From Escherichia coli (GTDB lineage Bacteria; Pseudomonadota; Gammaproteobacteria; Enterobacterales; Enterobacteriaceae), in assembly GCF_024700885.2 (NCBI RefSeq), contig NZ_CP117016.1: a DNA stretch of 64,000 nucleotides. One strand, 5' to 3'. The notes under the pieces are model-generated. The model worked only from the letters and a program-made list of their open reading frames with translations. It did no database searches and had not been told where the DNA came from. The position numbers and the translations under genes are program-made. Positions 7,462-59,876 of this stretch are shown here, one piece after another. Each line of letters opens with the position of its first letter. The first letter of the stretch is position 1.

Positions 7462-8938
7462 GCAGACGCCCCCGGATATTTGTCACAAAGAGAATGCGGG
7501 CCAGCCGCTCCTGCAGATCGTCCGTGTTCATCTGAGGGTAGAGCTCCGCCAGTTCGCCCAGCAGCTCAGACGGGTTAACCCCATTTTCGACCCGCCTGAA
7601 CAGAGGTGCCAGGACGGGTTCCAGCGTGCCATTTAACGCGCCTCCGTTCATCAGAATGTCCAGCGCGTCGTCAAGCTGCTGCTGAGCCTGAATATCAGCA
7701 TCAATCGCCTCGGCAAATGACAGCGGCAGCATGTTATTCTGTCGTTCCGACGGTGGTGTCTCGTCAATATCGCCGTCCTGCAGTTGGTACTCACGCTTGA
7801 AGTACTGCGGGGTCAGACGCAGACCCGCCCGGGTGAGTTTTTCGTCGCGGGTGGCACGGGTGTCATCAATGGCCTCCTGTTCCCACATGGCCCAGACCGG
7901 ACACGGCACATCGCCGAAGTTCAGGGTGACCACCGTTCTGATGACCTGATTCACTGCCGCCTGAATGATGTCCGCATCCGCATCGCGGATATCAGCCGTT
8001 ACCTCCAGCCCGGCCTGTGCAGAGGCCTTGTTACTGTTCGCTTCCGTGGTCTGATTCTGACCGAGTAATGCAATGGAGATCTCACTGCGTGACAGTGTGA
8101 TCAGCTCGCGGAATACCTCGCTGCTGTCCGCCTTACCATCCGCGGCTTTGAGTTCGATGCTGCTGTCATCGGGGATGGCGGCCACCGCGTCCTCCACCAT
8201 CTGCTCCATGGAGTCCAGCAGTTTTTCAATCTCTGCATCATTTGCACCCCTCGGGTGCTTACCGATCACCCACGGGGAGCCAAACTTTTCGGCAAAGCGG
8301 AGCCAGAATTTCATCCCGCCTTTCTTGAAGGCGACCGGCCAGAAGCACATGGACAGGTCCGGGAAACCGTAAGGATTGTCATACGAGGCATCCTGTGCCG
8401 GCACCACGAATTTTGACGGTGACAGCAGCTCACCCTCCACACCCGCATCACGCGCCCGGAAGCGCAGGCAGTTGTCCGTATCAAACTGAAACCACTCAGG
8501 CGGTTTGCCGACAATATCCGTCACCGCCCACGACCTGACCGAACGGCCCCACATGATTTCACAGGGCTGATACCCGTAGAGCACGGCATCGCTCATTTCA
8601 CCGATGATGCGGGACAGATCCAGATCGTCGAGCATGTCGCGGATGAAACGGAAGACCCGGGCAGAGGCGTGACCACGCTCCAGTCCACGCTCCAGCGATT
8701 TAAGCGCTGCTTTACGTCTGCGGATACAGCCCCCGACCAGCGGGTCGGTGCGCAGTTCGCGGTAGATACGGATATCCCGTCCCTGAGCCTTGAGAATGGG
8801 ATCAGGATTGGGCAGATACATGCCCAGTCCGTAAAAGTCGATCGCGCGGCTGCGGGAGGCAATCTGCGCGGTCAGTGATTTCTGAGGCTCAGAAAAAGCA
8901 ACAAATTCATCGGGTGAAACCCAGATACCCCTCGCCAT
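7442..8938 (-). CDS. phage portal protein (Mu gp29-like)
   Basis: 498 aa between terminase large subunit and F-like gene. Confidence 0.75.
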   Translation of the reverse strand: MARGIWVSPDEFVAFSEPQKSLTAQIASRSRAIDFYGLGMYLPNPDPILKAQGRDIRIYRELRTDPLVGGCIRRRKAALKSLERGLERGHASARVFRFIRDMLDDLDLSRIIGEMSDAVLYGYQPCEIMWGRSVRSWAVTDIVGKPPEWFQFDTDNCLRFRARDAGVEGELLSPSKFVVPAQDASYDNPYGFPDLSMCFWPVAFKKGGMKFWLRFAEKFGSPWVIGKHPRGANDAEIEKLLDSMEQMVEDAVAAIPDDSSIELKAADGKADSSEVFRELITLSRSEISIALLGQNQTTEANSNKASAQAGLEVTADIRDADADIIQAAVNQVIRTVVTLNFGDVPCPVWAMWEQEAIDDTRATRDEKLTRAGLRLTPQYFKREYQLQDGDIDETPPSERQNNMLPLSFAEAIDADIQAQQQLDDALDILMNGGALNGTLEPVLAPLFRRVENGVNPSELLGELAELYPQMNTDDLQERLARILFVTNIRGRLHERDNG

Positions 8939-10533
8939 CAGAATCCCTCCAGCATACGGGCCGCCTGACGACGACGGCGTGAGCTTGCCTTCACCGGCCC
9001 TTTGTTAATTTCACGGCTGGCGAAATACGCCAGCGCCAGTGCGATGGCTGAATCCCCGTGGCGTTTACCACCGTCAGCCTTTGCTTTTGAGCGTTGCTCC
9101 GGTACGCGGGGGACACCGTTCACCACCTGAACGGCCCGCAGGTCATCCAGTGTGTCTTCATCCTTTGGTAAGTCCACCAGGTTGCCGTCTTCCAGTGCAG
9201 CTTTGACCGGAGGCATATGCTCCCGGTACCAGCCTTCGGTTGGCATCACCTGCTGAACCCGGCCGGAGCCGTAGCGCTGCATGGCGTATTCAGCCAGATA
9301 GGCACCATTACCACGGGCATCAAACGCTGCACCCAGCAGACCGGGCAGGCCATCCATCAGATACCAGGTGATTTGCTCCTGCTGTCTGAACGGCACGTTA
9401 CGCAGCTCCAGTACGAATGGCACGCGTCGTACCAGGTTCTTCTCCTGCAGCAGGGGATAGTCCACCGACAAATCACCGCTACGGCCAAAGTCGCGCCCCA
9501 GGAAAGAGCGGGCATCAGTGGGGAGTGCCTCCAGCAATGGTTTCAGATACTCATCAAGCCAGTCCTGCGTCTCGCGGAAGCGAACCTCATCAGACAGCAG
9601 TTCATAACCTTCCTTGCAGGTCAGACGCAATACCGGCGTATCAGCGGACATGCGGGACTCTATCAGGGCACGGGACAGCCAGGCACCGCCACCGTTGGCC
9701 GGAATACAGTCAAGCTCTTCGGATGCGCCGGCACCGTAGAATTTGTACACCGATGCCATCCAGGCCTGCTCGGATGCCTCCGACCATTCCTTCCCGGTGC
9801 GCAGACAGACGCGCCGGAACAGCCCCTCAGATACGGCTTCCCGGAAAGTGATGCGATGTATGCTGCCTCCCTGACGTCCGGCACGGATATCCCCGATAAG
9901 CGTATTGAACGGATTGTCGTCACCGTCATGGGTGGAGATAACGCGTACCTTTCCCCCCCAGATAAGCATCGCCAGCGCCGCTTTCAGCAGTTCGTCCAGT
10001 TGCTCATGGAACGCCGCTTCGTCGATAACAATAATACCCTGACGGCCACGCAGGTTAGACGGGCGGCTGGAGAGCGCAACAATACGAAAGCCGGAGTCAG
10101 GAAATTTGATGGTGTAAGTCCTGATGTGTTTGTCGTCGTCGTCCTCTTCCCAGAATCCTTCTTCAATTTCACTGGCCGCATAGTTGAATGCCCGTGCCCA
10201 CATCGCACACGCCTGAATGTATTCGACGGTCATGTCCTGGTTATAAGCGATGTAATACACATTCATCCCGCCTGCTGGCGCAGAAGAGGCGGCGGTCAGT
10301 ACGTTATCGGATGCCTCAGCCCATGTAATACCGGTACGACGGCTCTTTTCTATCACCTTAAGCGGAGAGGTGTCTGCCACCCAGCGCTGCTGGTAAGGCA
10401 ACAGAACGGGAGGGGCATCCAGCGCCGAGGTATCAGGCAAAACGGGAGCAAGGTTATTCCTCCCGTCCATGGGACTCATCCCTTCGGGGCCGCCGCCAGC
10501 GGCGTTTAAAATCACTCCGGATGATTTTGTCAT
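8938..10533 (-). CDS. phage terminase large subunit (Mu gp28-like)
   Basis: 531 aa, position and size; N-terminal ATPase-like region. Confidence 0.75.
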   Translation of the reverse strand: MTKSSGVILNAAGGGPEGMSPMDGRNNLAPVLPDTSALDAPPVLLPYQQRWVADTSPLKVIEKSRRTGITWAEASDNVLTAASSAPAGGMNVYYIAYNQDMTVEYIQACAMWARAFNYAASEIEEGFWEEDDDDKHIRTYTIKFPDSGFRIVALSSRPSNLRGRQGIIVIDEAAFHEQLDELLKAALAMLIWGGKVRVISTHDGDDNPFNTLIGDIRAGRQGGSIHRITFREAVSEGLFRRVCLRTGKEWSEASEQAWMASVYKFYGAGASEELDCIPANGGGAWLSRALIESRMSADTPVLRLTCKEGYELLSDEVRFRETQDWLDEYLKPLLEALPTDARSFLGRDFGRSGDLSVDYPLLQEKNLVRRVPFVLELRNVPFRQQEQITWYLMDGLPGLLGAAFDARGNGAYLAEYAMQRYGSGRVQQVMPTEGWYREHMPPVKAALEDGNLVDLPKDEDTLDDLRAVQVVNGVPRVPEQRSKAKADGGKRHGDSAIALALAYFASREINKGPVKASSRRRRQAARMLEGF

Positions 10534-11075
10534 GTGGCAATCCCCAGAATCTCGCGACGAAGCGCCTGTACTGCGTCGCTTGACAGTCCCCCCTTACGGG
10601 CAATTTTCTCGGCGTTGCTGGCTGCCTGCTGCGCTCTGGCCCGTACTTCAGACTGGAACTTTTTGAGGTTGACGGACGCGCGGGACAGCGTAGCCACATT
10701 CTTCGCCACCTTCGACAGCAGGGCCACGCGTTCTTTAGGATCGACTTCGCCTTCTTCCGCCTCCTGCAACTGGACAATACTCTCGAACAGCTCGGTCTGA
10801 ATAAGGGCTATCACAGCCTCCGAACGCGCATCCTGATCGTCTGCTGCGCCTTCGGTCAGCATGCGGGCCGCTTCTGTTGCCGCACGGATAGCACCATAGC
10901 GGCGCTCAATCTTCTGTCCATAGCGATGGATAGCGGATTTGCTGATGACGTACCCCCGCTCACGCAACAGTGACTCCAGCTCGTTATACCCGCTGAAGCC
11001 GGATTCAGTCAGCGCCCGTTCAAGCCAGCGGCGCACGTCTTCCGGCAGCTTTTCTATTGTGCTGCGTCTGGCCAT
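10530..11075 (-). CDS. terminase small-subunit-like protein (Mu gp27-like)
   Basis: 181 aa directly upstream of and overlapping terminase large subunit start. Confidence 0.55.
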   Translation of the reverse strand: MARRSTIEKLPEDVRRWLERALTESGFSGYNELESLLRERGYVISKSAIHRYGQKIERRYGAIRAATEAARMLTEGAADDQDARSEAVIALIQTELFESIVQLQEAEEGEVDPKERVALLSKVAKNVATLSRASVNLKKFQSEVRARAQQAASNAEKIARKGGLSSDAVQALRREILGIAT

Positions 11076-11386
11076 TATTCACTCCAGTACTTTTCCGGGC
11101 GGGCAATACCCGGACCACATTCCACGGTGTATTCCACCAGGTCTACGCCGAGGCGGGTCAGGTCAGCAAACCAGTCGCCAGAAGGTTTTTTCTCCAGCTC
11201 AACCATTTTACGGTCAGCCAGATAATCCAGTTCGCGGCGCAGTTCCAGCGGTGTGGTGTCCGGGTAGATGGCACGGGACACATCCAGCAGCAGCGTCTCG
11301 CTGGCGGTGTAAGGGCGGGTCTTGTTCAGGGCAACCAGCAGACTCCAGCGCAGGGATTCGCGGCGTACCCGGGTAATATCGACCAT
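11075..11386 (-). CDS. hypothetical phage protein (Mu gp26 position)
   Basis: 103-aa ORF with stop/start coupling. Confidence 0.45.
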   Translation of the reverse strand: MVDITRVRRESLRWSLLVALNKTRPYTASETLLLDVSRAIYPDTTPLELRRELDYLADRKMVELEKKPSGDWFADLTRLGVDLVEYTVECGPGIARPEKYWSE

Positions 11387-11712
11387 TATTGACCTCCGGT
11401 ATTGCGGTACTGCTGTACCACTTCCAGTTTGTTATAAAGCGCGTCCAGTTTGGCCTCAATGACTGTCTGGCCACGGATATAATCCTCTCGACGGACATAA
11501 TTCAGCGGTAAATCCGCTTTAAATCGCATAAATTCTTTTTCCAGCTCGCCCCAGTTGGAGGCGGATTGTTGCAGGGCCTGTTCAAGGGAGGCGAATCGTG
11601 CCGCCTGGCGTTCTTCTGTTTTACTGAACAACCATTTGGCGAGCCCTCCCACAAACCCCATGAAGGTGAGCAGAAAACTCACCACCGTCCAGAATTCAAC
11701 CTGCAGTGTCAT
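11386..11712 (-). CDS. hypothetical membrane protein (one N-terminal TM)
   Basis: 108 aa, hydrophobic N-terminus FWTVVSFLLTFMGFVGGLA. Confidence 0.45.
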   Translation of the reverse strand: MTLQVEFWTVVSFLLTFMGFVGGLAKWLFSKTEERQAARFASLEQALQQSASNWGELEKEFMRFKADLPLNYVRREDYIRGQTVIEAKLDALYNKLEVVQQYRNTGGQ

Positions 11713-12359
11713 TTCTGTAATCCTTCCCGTTCATCCAGCAGCGCGTTTATCTGGTTCCGCCAGCGACGACATTGCCATGCGTTGTCGATGATGTTGGCGA
11801 GAACGTCACGCTGGGAGACACCCGAATCGCGTAACCGGGTGTCAGTGGTTTCAGGTTGCCCGGTCGCTGTGCCAGAGCGGGTGCCAGTGGCGGCAACTGA
11901 GTCTGAATGACCGGTGTCGACGGATGCGTTGTCATATCCGAGTGCGGCGTTGTACTGGCGCACGAAACCGCGAGTAAACACGCACTCAATGGGATGACTC
12001 TTACCTTTTTCATCAATCCAGCGCTGTGTGACATCGTTAATTTGCCCCTGTAGTTGTTTGTTCCGGCTCTCCAGTTGAGCAATCTGCTCAAGATAACCGG
12101 CTTCAGCCCGCTGCCCGGCGGCCACCTGCTCCTGATACCGTCTGGCCCAGGCCCGCAGCGCAGCATTCTCAAGCGTTGCCTGCTCCGTTTTGTACGCGTC
12201 AAATGCTGACTGCAACTGACTTAGCGCGGTATCACCGTCACGCTTTGCAGAGTCATGACCACTTCTGTATCCCATGGCATACAGGCCGACCAGAAAGGCA
12301 TTGATAAGAATGGCCAGCAGAATGCCGCGCCACGGCAGCTTTTTAACCAGATGCCACAC
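11709..12359 (-). CDS. i-spanin (Rz-like); GTG start at 12359 preferred, alternative ATG at 12461
   Basis: N-terminal TM (GILLAILINAFLVGLYAMGY) followed by coiled-coil region; directly after endolysin; contains an out-of-frame embedded lipoprotein ORF. Confidence 0.55.
   Translation of the reverse strand: MWHLVKKLPWRGILLAILINAFLVGLYAMGYRSGHDSAKRDGDTALSQLQSAFDAYKTEQATLENAALRAWARRYQEQVAAGQRAEAGYLEQIAQLESRNKQLQGQINDVTQRWIDEKGKSHPIECVFTRGFVRQYNAALGYDNASVDTGHSDSVAATGTRSGTATGQPETTDTRLRDSGVSQRDVLANIIDNAWQCRRWRNQINALLDEREGLQK
11747..12013 (-). CDS. o-spanin (Rz1-like outer-membrane lipoprotein), embedded in the i-spanin gene
   Basis: Alternate frame inside the i-spanin gene: MKKVRVIPLSACLLAVSC with lipobox AVSC, Pro-rich mature part. 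Confidence 0.6.
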   Translation of the reverse strand: MKKVRVIPLSACLLAVSCASTTPHSDMTTHPSTPVIQTQLPPLAPALAQRPGNLKPLTPGYAIRVSPSVTFSPTSSTTHGNVVAGGTR

Positions 12360-13083
12360 AACTGCTGCCTCCCCATGTGAGATATCGCGGTGCCAGTTCG
12401 CGCAGGATGCGCTGCGGATAATGGCGGTTCTCCCGCCAGCTGGCCGCATTGCGTCCGGCATTCACCGTGGCGACATGTCCGAACCAGCGGGTGCTGTCCA
12501 GACCTTTCTGTGATGCAAGCCGCCTGTCCCGTTGTACCCAGCCCAGACCACCGTTATAGCCCGACAGTGTCATGGCCATACGCTCGCAGTCACTGGCGGC
12601 GCTGACACGCTGCCACAGCCAGCGGTCATAGCTGACCAGCGCCCGGATAGCCCATGCCGGATTAAACGGCTCACGACTGCTCAGCATCGGTATCAACTGG
12701 CTTATCCAGTCGGCAGTGGCAGGCATGAACTGCGCCAGTCCCTGAGCGCCAGCCGGCGAGATCGCATCAGGTCGCCAGCCGCTTTCCTGATGCAGTTGCG
12801 CGGCGAAATCGGCCACCGGCGCAGACAGTCCCCATTCAAGCCGGGCATTACGGATCACATCATCGCGATACTGCAGCGCAGCCTGCGGAGGTTGTGCTGC
12901 GCATGCCTGGCTGAAAAAGCCGCCACACCAGAGCAACATTGCGACAAAGAATACCCATGCCATATGAACCAGAAAGGTCCCGGCGCGGACTGACAGGCGT
13001 TCGGTTCTGATGAAGACCCGAAAGGCTTCGAAAGCCAGTTTCAGGGACATGCATACAATCCAGGTGATCTGCGGCCAGTTCAT
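12343..13083 (-). CDS. endolysin, lytic transglycosylase (SLT domain) with N-terminal signal-anchor
   Basis: GLAQFMPATA motif and ES/GW transglycosylase signature; hydrophobic N-terminus; follows holin-like gene. Confidence 0.7.
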   Translation of the reverse strand: MNWPQITWIVCMSLKLAFEAFRVFIRTERLSVRAGTFLVHMAWVFFVAMLLWCGGFFSQACAAQPPQAALQYRDDVIRNARLEWGLSAPVADFAAQLHQESGWRPDAISPAGAQGLAQFMPATADWISQLIPMLSSREPFNPAWAIRALVSYDRWLWQRVSAASDCERMAMTLSGYNGGLGWVQRDRRLASQKGLDSTRWFGHVATVNAGRNAASWRENRHYPQRILRELAPRYLTWGGSSCVASG

Positions 13084-13085
13084 GA

Positions 13086-13436
13086 TTAAAGCCCCATCGC
13101 AACAGCCAGGCAGACCGCTGCAACAATCAGTGCACGGCGGATTAACGCAGCAGAAAACACCAGGTGAAGGCCGGTCTGTACCGGGAAACGCCCTTCAGCC
13201 ATCAGCCTGTCGTCATGTTTCAGGTACTGACCGGGACGGGCTTTGGGGAAGAGCGAACGGTCAAGCCAGTAACCCAGCACTGCTGCCAGCGTGATGAGTG
13301 CCAGCTTGTAGATCACAACAGGCAGCTGCTGTGGTGAGACCAGAGCGATGGTGCCCAGCAACAGCACTGAGGTCAGCAGCCAGCCGCTGAGGCGAGGTTT
13401 TTTAACAAGGGGAATGAATTTTTTCAGTTTTTTCAT
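13086..13436 (-). CDS. holin-like membrane protein (3 predicted TM); start set at ATG 13436
   Basis: AAGGAGA 5 nt upstream of ATG 13436; three hydrophobic segments; first gene of the lysis cassette. Confidence 0.5.
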   Translation of the reverse strand: MKKLKKFIPLVKKPRLSGWLLTSVLLLGTIALVSPQQLPVVIYKLALITLAAVLGYWLDRSLFPKARPGQYLKHDDRLMAEGRFPVQTGLHLVFSAALIRRALIVAAVCLAVAMGL

Positions 13437-25099: not shown

Positions 25100-25174
<75 letters not shown>

Positions 25175-25363
25175 GTGAACTTTCTCGTGGAAAAATACGC
25201 GCTGGTGCGTACCGACCAGCCGGGATTCAGCGCCTGTACCCGCTCTCAGTTAATAAACAGCATCGATATCCTCCGGGCTCGCAGGGCGACCGGCCTGATG
25301 ACCCGCGACAATTACAGAACGGTAAATAACATTACCCTGGGTAAGTATCCGGAGGCGAAATGA
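25175..25363 (+). pseudogene. cbtA: 3' fragment of cbtA/ykfI/ypjF-family toxin gene (truncated by prophage insertion)
   Basis: Translation NFLVEKYALVRTDQPGFSA...ILRARRATGLMTRDNYRTVNNITLGK matches my recollection of the CbtA C-terminal half; GTG start with no RBS and in-frame stop 2 codons upstream. Confidence 0.5.
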
Positions 25364-34488: not shown

Positions 34489-34748
34489 TCTCCTTTACGG
34501 TGATAACCGTCGCGTAAGCAAAAAATTGCCCCATTTTTTTGGATTCCTCAGCGACAACAACTGTCGATTTTTAGTAAATATCTATCCGGTACGAAGCCCG
34601 GCCTCTTGGTATGAATGATTGGTTTGAAGCAAAAAATAACCGACGCTGATGAAACGTCGGTTTTTAGTCATTTTTTGACAGCGGCGCATTGTGCCTAAAT
34701 GGGGGGGAAATGACAAGAGAATGAGAGGCTTGTCATAATAATTTTTCT

Positions 34749-37415: not shown

Positions 37416-37466
37416 ATGACACGCGTTCAATTTAAACACCACCATCATCACCATCATCCTGACTAG
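37416..37466 (+). CDS. hisL: his operon leader peptide
   Basis: MTRVQFKHHHHHHHPD with seven consecutive His codons. Confidence 0.85.
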   Translation: MTRVQFKHHHHHHHPD

Positions 37467-37528
37467 TCTTTCAGGCGATGTGTGCTGGAAGACATTCAGA
37501 TCTTCCAGTGGTGCATGAACGCATGAGA

Positions 37529-37565
37529 AAGCCCCCGGAAGATCACCTTCCGGGGGCTTTTTTAT
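37529..37565 (+). terminator. his attenuator terminator
   Basis: GCCCCCGGAAG..CTTCCGGGGGC stem followed by TTTTTTT. Confidence 0.8.
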
Positions 37566-59837: not shown

Positions 59838-59876
59838 CACGCTACCGCCCCTGGCTTTACAGCTACCAGAGCACTG
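59838..59876 (-). promoter_or_regulatory. JUMPstart element with ops (GGCGGTAGCGTG) for RfaH-dependent antitermination
   Basis: Reverse complement reads CAGTGCTCTGGTAGCTGTAAAGCCAGGGGCGGTAGCGTG. Confidence 0.85.

Follow-up and report, generated by a model that had tools for sequence, protein, structure and literature searches.

A putative embedded spanin pair in the lysis cassette of a BcepMu-like prophage of Escherichia coli

Described spanin pairs and their relation to the locus

Phages of Gram-negative hosts have supplied textbook examples of embedded Rz/Rz1-type spanins ever since lambda. In about 70% of embedded pairs, the o-spanin gene extends from about 0.4–0.5 to 0.9–1 of the length (L) of the i-spanin gene, and at least one periplasmic cysteine is present in 507 of the 528 pairs of a spanin survey, which lists BcepMu and phiE255 as an embedded two-component spanin family and B3, JBD25, JBD18 and JBD67 as an embedded group (PMC6139136). 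Phage Mu has the spanins gp23 and gp23.1, together with the releasin gp25 (PMC9239132).

We analysed a stretch of 64,000 nucleotides of Escherichia coli DNA (contig NZ_CP117016.1; hereafter, the window), a BcepMu-like transposable prophage that carries two nested genes on the minus strand. Very probably, this locus is an embedded-type two-component spanin of the late lysis cassette. The arrangement is well known and ordinary and, with the BcepMu homologue already annotated as Rz1, holds little biological novelty.

On sequence similarity, the pair can be assigned to the BcepMu/B3-type Rz–Rz1 family (PHROG 1403 for the i-spanin). The i-spanin is 32% identical to gp23 of BcepMu (genus Bcepmuvirus, a Burkholderia phage; E = 1 × 10−10), with similarity limited to the C-terminal ~118 residues, and 33% identical over 92% of its length to ORF27 (Rz) of the Pseudomonas phage B3 (tblastn, E = 7 × 10−8). 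The o-spanin is 37% identical over 62 amino acids to BcepMu gp24 (E = 6 × 10−6), which is moderate evidence, as this is a single-pair E value for a compositionally biased protein. The record of gp24 describes it as ‘Rz1, out of frame, embedded proline-rich protein’, and it shares with the window o-spanin the embedded +1 architecture, an N-terminal extension before the signal peptide, a proline-rich mature part and an RP...P.Y motif; gp23 shares the CVFT.GF motif that is conserved in the i-spanin. B3 has a correspondingly placed, unannotated lipoprotein open reading frame (ORF) whose lipobox AAGC is followed by ATSTPP, although by our own reading this ORF ends 7 nt past the i-spanin stop. The lipobox cysteine of the window o-spanin aligns with those of gp24 and of the B3 ORF, whereas the periplasmic cysteines of these two proteins (PMVCP and PVCPP) have no counterpart in it. 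Conversely, gp23 lacks a cysteine at the position aligned to C197 of the window i-spanin. The gene order (holin, SLT endolysin, Rz/Rz1, gp25, gp26, TerS and TerL) matches that of BcepMu, in which the holin is also of the PF13272 type, and that of B3, which differs in having a further small gene, ORF26, between its endolysin and Rz genes.

The lambda Pfam models PF03245 (Phage_lysis) and PF06085 (Rz1) gave no match for either protein at E values up to 0.1, and the pair is analogous to lambda Rz/Rz1 without being a member of that sequence family. Both systems share functional class and embedded +1 architecture, a type II i-spanin with two periplasmic cysteines and, possibly, a helix–linker–helix periplasmic domain (suggested in the window by a low-confidence model), and a small, proline-rich outer-membrane lipoprotein (predicted in the window). 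The mature o-spanin is 40 amino acids long in lambda and 71 in the window, and the periplasmic C29 of lambda Rz1 has no equivalent in the window protein. The late region of Mu is similar in that its endolysin and spanin pair are accompanied by gp26, gp27 (TerS) and a small membrane protein that has a transmembrane segment at its N terminus, and the Mu o-spanin gene was likewise absent from the original annotation. However, the Mu spanin genes overlap and are not embedded, and Mu has a SAR lysozyme and no holin, in contrast to the holin and SLT enzyme of the window.

The lysis cassette and the start of the i-spanin gene

The spanin genes sit in a lysis cassette directly downstream of genes for a holin (PF13272) and an SLT enzyme (PF01464), with stop and start codons that overlap or abut. 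The holin (13086..13436, minus strand; 116 amino acids from the PGAP start) matches Holin_2-3 (PF13272, E = 1.5 × 10−41) and PHROG 1528 (E = 3 × 10−54, aligned from residue 12 of the 127-amino-acid ORF) and has three hydrophobic segments by hydropathy; its stop codon lies 2 nt ahead of the endolysin ATG. The endolysin (12343..13083, minus strand) is a lytic transglycosylase of 246 amino acids that matches PF01464 (E = 1.8 × 10−14) and PHROG 669 (E = 9 × 10−69), has a catalytic-type E-S motif at HQES and is 56% identical to BcepMu gp22. Its N-terminal ~65 amino acids contain two hydrophobic segments by hydropathy and, after them, an A-x-A motif (A-C-A|AQPP) that is conserved in homologues. The B3 endolysin also has two such segments, whereas that of BcepMu has a single short signal-like N terminus. 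The initial annotation described an SLT endolysin with a signal-anchor-like N terminus, a fair label as far as the enzyme class and the hydrophobic N terminus go; the two segments and the A-x-A motif depart from it, and the region exceeds known Gly/Ala-rich SAR domains in hydrophobicity.

On the other side of the spanin genes, the ATG of a membrane protein of 108 amino acids (11386..11712, minus strand) overlaps the i-spanin stop (ATGA). This protein has an N-terminal transmembrane segment, is 53% identical to BcepMu gp25 (E = 3 × 10−35), falls into PHROG 462 and probably belongs to the lysis cassette. We rejected the ‘lipoprotein’ label of PHROG 462 for it because it contains no cysteine at all. 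We also rejected its identification as a Mu gp25/DUF2730 releasin, as BLASTP produced no alignment and Pfam no match; its homology is to BcepMu gp25 only.

The outer gene of the nested pair (11709..12359, minus strand) encodes 216 amino acids from a GTG start, with the same coordinates in PGAP (WP_000264665.1), and its sequence supports its identification as an Rz-like i-spanin; its match to PHROG 1403 has an E value of 4 × 10−92. Searches of Pfam and NCBIfam gave no significant match, and Pfam matches below threshold (OmpH and others, E above 0.01) were disregarded. The basic N terminus (K6, K7 and R11) leads into a single hydrophobic, transmembrane segment at residues ~12–30 (hydropathy, maximum KD19 of 2.15), from which the positive-inside rule predicts an N-in/C-out topology. 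The protein has two cysteines, Cys126 and Cys197, of which the former is invariant and also present in BcepMu and B3; in spanin pairs, periplasmic cysteines allow intermolecular disulfide bonds. An AlphaFold2 model computed from a 27-sequence alignment has helices at residues 10–118 and 183–215 that flank a disordered stretch at 140–173; confidence is low (mean pLDDT of 52.7), and the model may suggest a coiled-coil organization.

The start of this gene had been called ambiguous between GTG 12359 and ATG 12461, but homologous loci settle it in favour of the GTG. A Shine–Dalgarno sequence, GGGGAGG (12368..12374, minus strand), read from the sequence in the 3′-terminal part of the endolysin gene, stands 8 nt before GTG 12359, and every homologous locus keeps it in the form GGGGAGG, GGGGGGG or GGGGAGA. 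In the window and in close relatives, no stop codon interrupts the frame downstream of ATG 12461, and translation from there would yield a protein of 250 amino acids (12461..11709, minus strand) whose gene runs 119 nt into that of the endolysin (stop at 12343). Such a protein is extremely improbable, as in eleven homologous sequences a stop codon in the same frame separates the position of ATG 12461 from the GTG. Moreover, the alignment of the long ORF to the PHROG 1403 profile begins only at residue 36, the full-coverage homologues among the matches listed are 215–217 amino acids long, and the 34 extra residues would form a long, Arg-rich, non-conserved tail ahead of the transmembrane segment. 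The endolysin overlap of about 120 nt that had been proposed is thus correct arithmetic for an unsupported form; starting at GTG 12359, the overlap is 17 nt.

The embedded lipoprotein reading frame and its conservation

The inner gene (11747..12034, minus strand) encodes 95 amino acids from ATG 12034 or 88 from ATG 12013. The reading MKKVRVIPLSACLLAVSC..., which begins at ATG 12013, is present in the alternate frame: the i-spanin gene is 651 nt long and has this ATG at offset 346, which places the ATG in the +1 frame, and the stop codon (11749–11747) falls 38 nt ahead of the i-spanin stop, so that the inner gene is fully embedded, as the initial annotation had it. Its position (0.53 L to 0.94 L), together with the two periplasmic cysteines of the i-spanin, fits the published spanin statistics. 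Both start codons are equally conserved and have weak Shine–Dalgarno sequences: GGGG lies 10 nt upstream of ATG 12034, and GGA 3 nt upstream of ATG 12013. ATG 12034, seven codons upstream of the other, corresponds in alignment to the start annotated for BcepMu gp24 and is more probably the start; the mature protein is identical whichever is used.

A signal peptide with the lipobox LLAVS|C precedes Cys18 (codon 11962–11960), the predicted acylated residue and the only cysteine from there to the C terminus. The lipobox that had been noted, AVSC, carries an alanine at −3, outside the strict [LVI] consensus; the protein nevertheless satisfies a lipoprotein rule in the style of PROSITE PS51257, with Cys18 as the lipobox cysteine. 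The B3 ORF has AAGC at the same place, and a lipobox of the form AWAC has been validated (PMC6139136). Cys12 (LSAC) was rejected as the lipobox cysteine, as too short a hydrophobic stretch precedes it and the lipobox cysteine of homologues aligns with Cys18. The predicted mature protein of 71 amino acids contains 11 proline, 12 threonine and 8 serine residues, which bears out its description as proline-rich, and it begins with an invariant C-A-S-T-T, with Ala-Ser at +2/+3 and no Asp at +2. Searches of Pfam, NCBIfam and PHROG returned no usable match for the o-spanin; a Pfam match to SEEK1 (E = 0.013) was rejected as compositional noise.

An ORF of this kind might be a by-product of the i-spanin sequence, lipoprotein-like by accident and not a gene. 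We therefore recoded the i-spanin gene synonymously 5,000 times. An ORF of at least 88 codons, regardless of any signal, arose in 956 recodings (19%), so ORF length alone is not significant. It is the lipoprotein signal that makes chance unlikely: embedded ORFs of at least 40 amino acids with such a signal appeared in 23 recodings (0.5%), and one of at least 88 amino acids in a single recoding. The accidental reading is also favoured by the missing family model and by the rarity with which gene callers report the ORF, as a search of 5.8 billion protein clusters recovered only 7 partial, differently delimited ORFs. However, the inner ORF is open and of constant length in all 41 distinct homologous genes (i-spanin identity of 70–100%), with an invariant start and lipobox (LMKK.R.IPL.ACLLA.SCASTT) and the lipobox form LLA[VA]SC throughout. 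The overlap has accumulated at least 134 substitution events, with a probability of about 0.013 that no stop would arise by chance, and the remaining alternate frame contains 4–8 stops per sequence. Further evidence against an accident comes from BcepMu gp24 and the B3 ORF, homologues at the same position in i-spanin genes that are only ~32–33% identical.

Diversity at third positions of the i-spanin frame falls threefold, from 0.297 upstream of the overlap to 0.099 inside it, which again speaks against a by-product, and mean nucleotide identity to the window sequence rises from 0.85 to 0.91. Across the overlap, both proteins are ~86–87% identical to the window sequence. The o-spanin motif PPL.P.L..RP..L.PL..GYA is conserved across enterobacterial homologues, and a looser form (RP, P.Y) is common to the o-spanins of BcepMu and B3. 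These patterns indicate that both reading frames are under constraint and support a reading of the inner ORF as a lipoprotein gene that is conserved and has a homologue in BcepMu gp24 (Rz1); we regard an accidental ORF as highly improbable.

Could the pair be an intact but silent remnant of a defective prophage, without present function? The prophage occurs in 637 of 5,426 complete E. coli genomes, as well as in many other Enterobacterales, and its fixation at >99% identity across many E. coli genomes would suit a remnant, as would the two tail-region genes that PGAP flags as frameshifted or containing an internal stop in one identical genome. These flags may, however, stem from programmed frameshifting. 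Purifying selection on both frames across Enterobacterales argues against a remnant, as does PhiKM, which was deposited as a phage genome and is 99.9% identical to the window prophage, with the cassette likewise at 99.9%. We consider a silent remnant very unlikely.

A proposed lysis pathway and the annotation of the locus

In the pathway that we propose, the i-spanin would be translated from GTG 12359 and inserted as a type II inner-membrane protein, with its helical domain reaching into the periplasm. Translation of the o-spanin would begin within the i-spanin gene, in the +1 frame, at ATG 12034 or 12013; the protein would then be exported by Sec, acylated at the lipobox cysteine and cleaved by signal peptidase II. 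In E. coli, the absence of Asp at +2 is an outer-membrane signal for Lol sorting, and we infer from the mature N terminus that the o-spanin would be delivered to the outer membrane. If the pair behaves like lambda Rz/Rz1, the two proteins would bind to each other across the periplasm through their C-terminal parts. After removal of the peptidoglycan by the holin and SLT endolysin, the complex would fuse or disrupt the outer membrane and release the phage. Lipidation, sorting, complex formation and the role in lysis are all predictions drawn from sequence features and analogy.

A doubtful extension of this pathway is that the endolysin is tethered by an N-terminal two-helix membrane hairpin ending at the A-x-A motif, and that the gp25-like protein, coupled translationally to the i-spanin, acts as a non-DUF2730 ‘releasin’ analogue that controls release alongside the holin. 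Were such a tether to exist, it would differ both from a classical SAR domain and from a simple signal peptide.

The practical value of the locus lies in annotation. In genome annotations, the nested gene is almost never recorded; public records consistently miss this o-spanin, and it is not annotated in the RefSeq, PhiKM and KP12 records inspected. The analysis also fixes the i-spanin start and provides a clean case of constraint on both frames, which could serve as a benchmark for overlapping-gene finders. The i-spanin is mostly labelled ‘hypothetical’ or ‘putative lipoprotein’. We rejected the second label, used for PhiKM and KP12, because the protein has no cysteine before residue 126; in some genomes, PGAP names the identical protein ‘lysis system spanin subunit’.

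Architecture of the lysis cassette

The lysis genes belong to a tightly packed block of window ORFs, all on the minus strand, that runs from 13436 to 8938. A holin gene (13436..13086; Pfam PF13272, E = 1.5e-41; PHROG 1528) and an SLT-domain endolysin gene (13083..12343; PF01464, E = 1.8e-14; PHROG 669) are followed by the ORF flagged in the initial annotation (12461..11709), genes for a 108-aa membrane protein (11712..11386) and a 103-aa protein (11386..11075), a Mu gp27-type small terminase (11075..10530; PF11985, E = 1.3e-56) and the large terminase (10533..8938). The initial annotation had placed an alternate-frame lipoprotein ORF wholly inside the i-spanin gene, and the arrangement is as it described. 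The inner ORF (MKKVRVIPLSACLLAVSC...) can be read from ATG 12013 to a stop at 11749-11747. This ATG lies at offset 346 of the 651-nt i-spanin gene (12359..11709), that is, in the +1 frame, and because the ORF ends 38 nt before the outer stop it is fully embedded. It spans 0.53-0.94 of the length of the outer gene, a placement that fits the one reported for about 70% of embedded pairs (PMC6139136).

The first ~65 codons of the endolysin (12889-13083, minus strand) encode two hydrophobic segments with a short basic loop between them. Most homologues have this two-segment N-terminus and phage B3 shares the layout, whereas BcepMu gp22 has a single short signal-like segment; the A-x-A-A-Q-P-P motif after the hydrophobic segments is conserved in all endolysin homologues. 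The second segment (FLVHMAWVFFVAMLLWCGGFF) is far more hydrophobic than typical Gly/Ala-rich SAR domains, so after export the enzyme may be cleaved, stay anchored in the membrane or be set free.

The gene for the 108-aa protein (11386-11712, minus strand) comes next, its ATG sharing bases with the i-spanin stop codon (ATGA). The protein has an N-terminal transmembrane segment and 53% identity to BcepMu gp25, and its gene occupies the position held in Mu by the releasin gp25 (PMC9239132), but similarity to Mu gp25 or DUF2730 was not detectable. The label 'lipoprotein' of PHROG 462 was ruled out, as the protein contains no Cys.

Constraint on both frames and choice of start codons

The length of the inner ORF is not persuasive by itself. 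When the i-spanin gene was recoded synonymously according to local codon usage (5,000 trials), an embedded ATG-initiated ORF of at least 88 aa arose in 956 recodings. A PROSITE-PS51257-style lipoprotein rule was passed by an embedded ORF of at least 40 aa in 23 of the 5,000, and by one of at least 88 aa in a single trial. Comparison among homologues is more telling. Scanning viral contigs yielded 57 related loci that, with three annotated records and the window, gave 41 distinct i-spanin genes (70-100% protein identity). The +1 ORF is open and of equal length in all 41, the string LMKK.R.IPL.ACLLA.SCASTT is invariant among them, and PPL.P.L..RP..L.PL..GYA is also kept further along. At least 134 substitution events in the overlap have created no stop (P ~0.013 under random substitution), and each sequence has 4-8 stops in the third frame. 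Nucleotide diversity at i-spanin codon positions 1, 2 and 3 has the usual profile of a single gene upstream of the overlap (0.161, 0.112 and 0.297), but within it the values are 0.112, 0.045 and 0.099. Relative to the window sequence, mean nucleotide identity is 0.85 upstream and increases to 0.91 in the overlap, where both proteins are ~86-87% identical to those of the window. From the retained open frame, the codon-position diversity and these identities, we conclude that both frames are under purifying selection. That the inner ORF arose by chance, as the frequency of long ORFs among the recodings might suggest, is thus very improbable given its conservation.

The start of the i-spanin gene, which had been left ambiguous between GTG 12359 and ATG 12461, is settled by sequence comparison in favour of the predicted GTG. 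In eleven distinct homologous upstream sequences, an in-frame stop (…I*HG…) interrupts the stretch that separates the counterpart of ATG 12461 from the GTG, and both the GTG and a GGGGAGG 8 nt upstream of it are conserved throughout the homologues. The PHROG 1403 alignment begins at residue 36 of the long ORF, PGAP calls a protein of 216 aa, and the full-coverage database homologues among the matches listed are all 215-217 aa. The overlap with the endolysin gene is therefore 17 nt rather than 119. A longer protein from ATG 12461 has only a slight chance of being the true product in view of the in-frame stops.

Two candidate starts for the o-spanin, ATG 12034 (MSHSAGLMKK…) and ATG 12013 (MKK…), are kept in every locus because the same DNA also encodes the invariant i-spanin motif VTQRWIDEK. 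ATG 12034 seems slightly more likely; its purine run (GGGG, 10 nt upstream) is the better placed of the two, and in the alignment it coincides with the start annotated for BcepMu gp24. Cleavage by signal peptidase II would leave the same product from either.

Kinship, anatomy and annotation of the spanin pair

The i-spanin matches PHROG 1403 ('Rz-like spanin'; E = 4e-92) and, in phage records, is ~33% identical over more than 90% of its length to the Rz-like spanins of Pseudomonas phage B3 and relatives. The gene order is that of BcepMu: holin gp21, SLT endolysin gp22, gp23/gp24, gp25, gp26, TerS gp27 and TerL gp28. In the BcepMu record gp23 is Rz (32% identity to the window i-spanin over 118 residues, E = 1e-10) and gp24 is 'Rz1, out of frame, embedded proline-rich protein' (37% identity to the inner ORF over 62 residues, E = 6e-6). 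At the equivalent position in B3 lies a lipoprotein ORF that lacks annotation, its lipobox AAGC followed by ATSTPP. The lipobox Cys residues of all three phages fall in one alignment column, and the three share an RP...P.Y core. Neither window protein matched the lambda Rz or Rz1 Pfam models. By analogy, the pair would work like lambda Rz/Rz1 while its sequence lineage is that of BcepMu and B3. Embedded two-component spanins have been described, with families that include BcepMu and phiE255, and B3, JBD25, JBD18 and JBD67 (PMC6139136); the window pair is another member of this kind and lineage.

The i-spanin contains a single strongly hydrophobic stretch (residues ~12-30) with K6, K7 and R11 before it, which fits a type II inner-membrane protein. 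In its AlphaFold2 model, of low confidence (mean pLDDT 52.7), a long helix reaches residue 118, residues 140-173 are disordered and residues 183-215 form a C-terminal helix; the resemblance to the helix-linker-helix plan of Rz is only a hint. The mature o-spanin (71 residues, including 11 Pro, 12 Thr and 8 Ser) begins C-A-S, and because there is no Asp at +2, sorting to the outer membrane is expected. The two periplasmic Cys of the pair, C126 and C197, are both in the i-spanin, and C126 is invariant, BcepMu and B3 included. In contrast to the BcepMu and B3 o-spanins, that of the window has no periplasmic Cys. The pair nevertheless conforms to the pattern of at least one such Cys, reported for 507 of 528 spanin pairs (PMC6139136).

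The gene layout, the constraint on both frames, the signal with its lipobox, the topology features, the homology and the gene context are shown by the sequences, whereas the steps of lysis are inferred from work on lambda and Mu; the reading as a whole is highly probable. In this scheme the o-spanin would be acylated and Lol-sorted to the outer membrane, and its C-terminal part would pair with the C-terminal helix of the i-spanin. After removal of the peptidoglycan mesh by the holin and SLT endolysin, the complex would fuse or disrupt the outer membrane.

What merits recording about this spanin pair is an annotation gap. The o-spanin gene (11747-12034 and the homologous loci, L001-L060) is annotated in none of the five annotated records of this family that were inspected (three RefSeq E. 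coli genomes, PhiKM and KP12), and only seven partial ORFs among 5.8 billion protein clusters match its product. The i-spanin is usually a 'hypothetical protein'; in PhiKM and KP12 it is mislabelled 'putative lipoprotein', having no Cys before residue 126.

Prophage distribution and chromosomal setting

The 2.2-kb cassette is 99.9% identical to that of Escherichia phage PhiKM (classified in Bcepmuvirus) and ~88% identical to deposits of Klebsiella phage KP12 and Escherichia phage Phi06_2974 B. Of 5,426 complete E. coli genomes, 637 carry it, 471 of them with at least 99% identity. The spanin pair might be an inert remnant of a dead prophage, but the near-identical cassette in PhiKM, deposited as a phage genome, makes this a marginal prospect. 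One genome, 100% identical over the 2.2-kb query, is annotated with a Mu-like transposable prophage (DDE transposase, Gam, Mor, a gp16 family protein and Mu-type head genes). PGAP flags two minus-strand genes of the tail region there (window ~147-429 and upstream of position 1, after conversion of the record's coordinates) as 'frameshifted' and 'internal stop', which could reflect a programmed tail-chaperone frameshift rather than decay.

One prophage end, at ~25170 (window ~25170-25363), falls within the CP4-44 toxin gene cbtA (yeeV), of which just the C-terminal half (62 codons) is left, with yeeW next; PGAP marks the gene 'incomplete; missing N-terminus' in the identical genome. The remainder of the window is E. 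coli chromosome and includes the his operon with its leader, the O-antigen region and a JUMPstart element; a tRNA gene was found nowhere in the window. Rfam matches outside the prophage, STnc240 sRNA (34629-34703), the his operon leader (37442-37565) and JUMPstart (59838-59876, upstream of the O-antigen cluster), all belong to the ordinary content of an E. coli chromosome.
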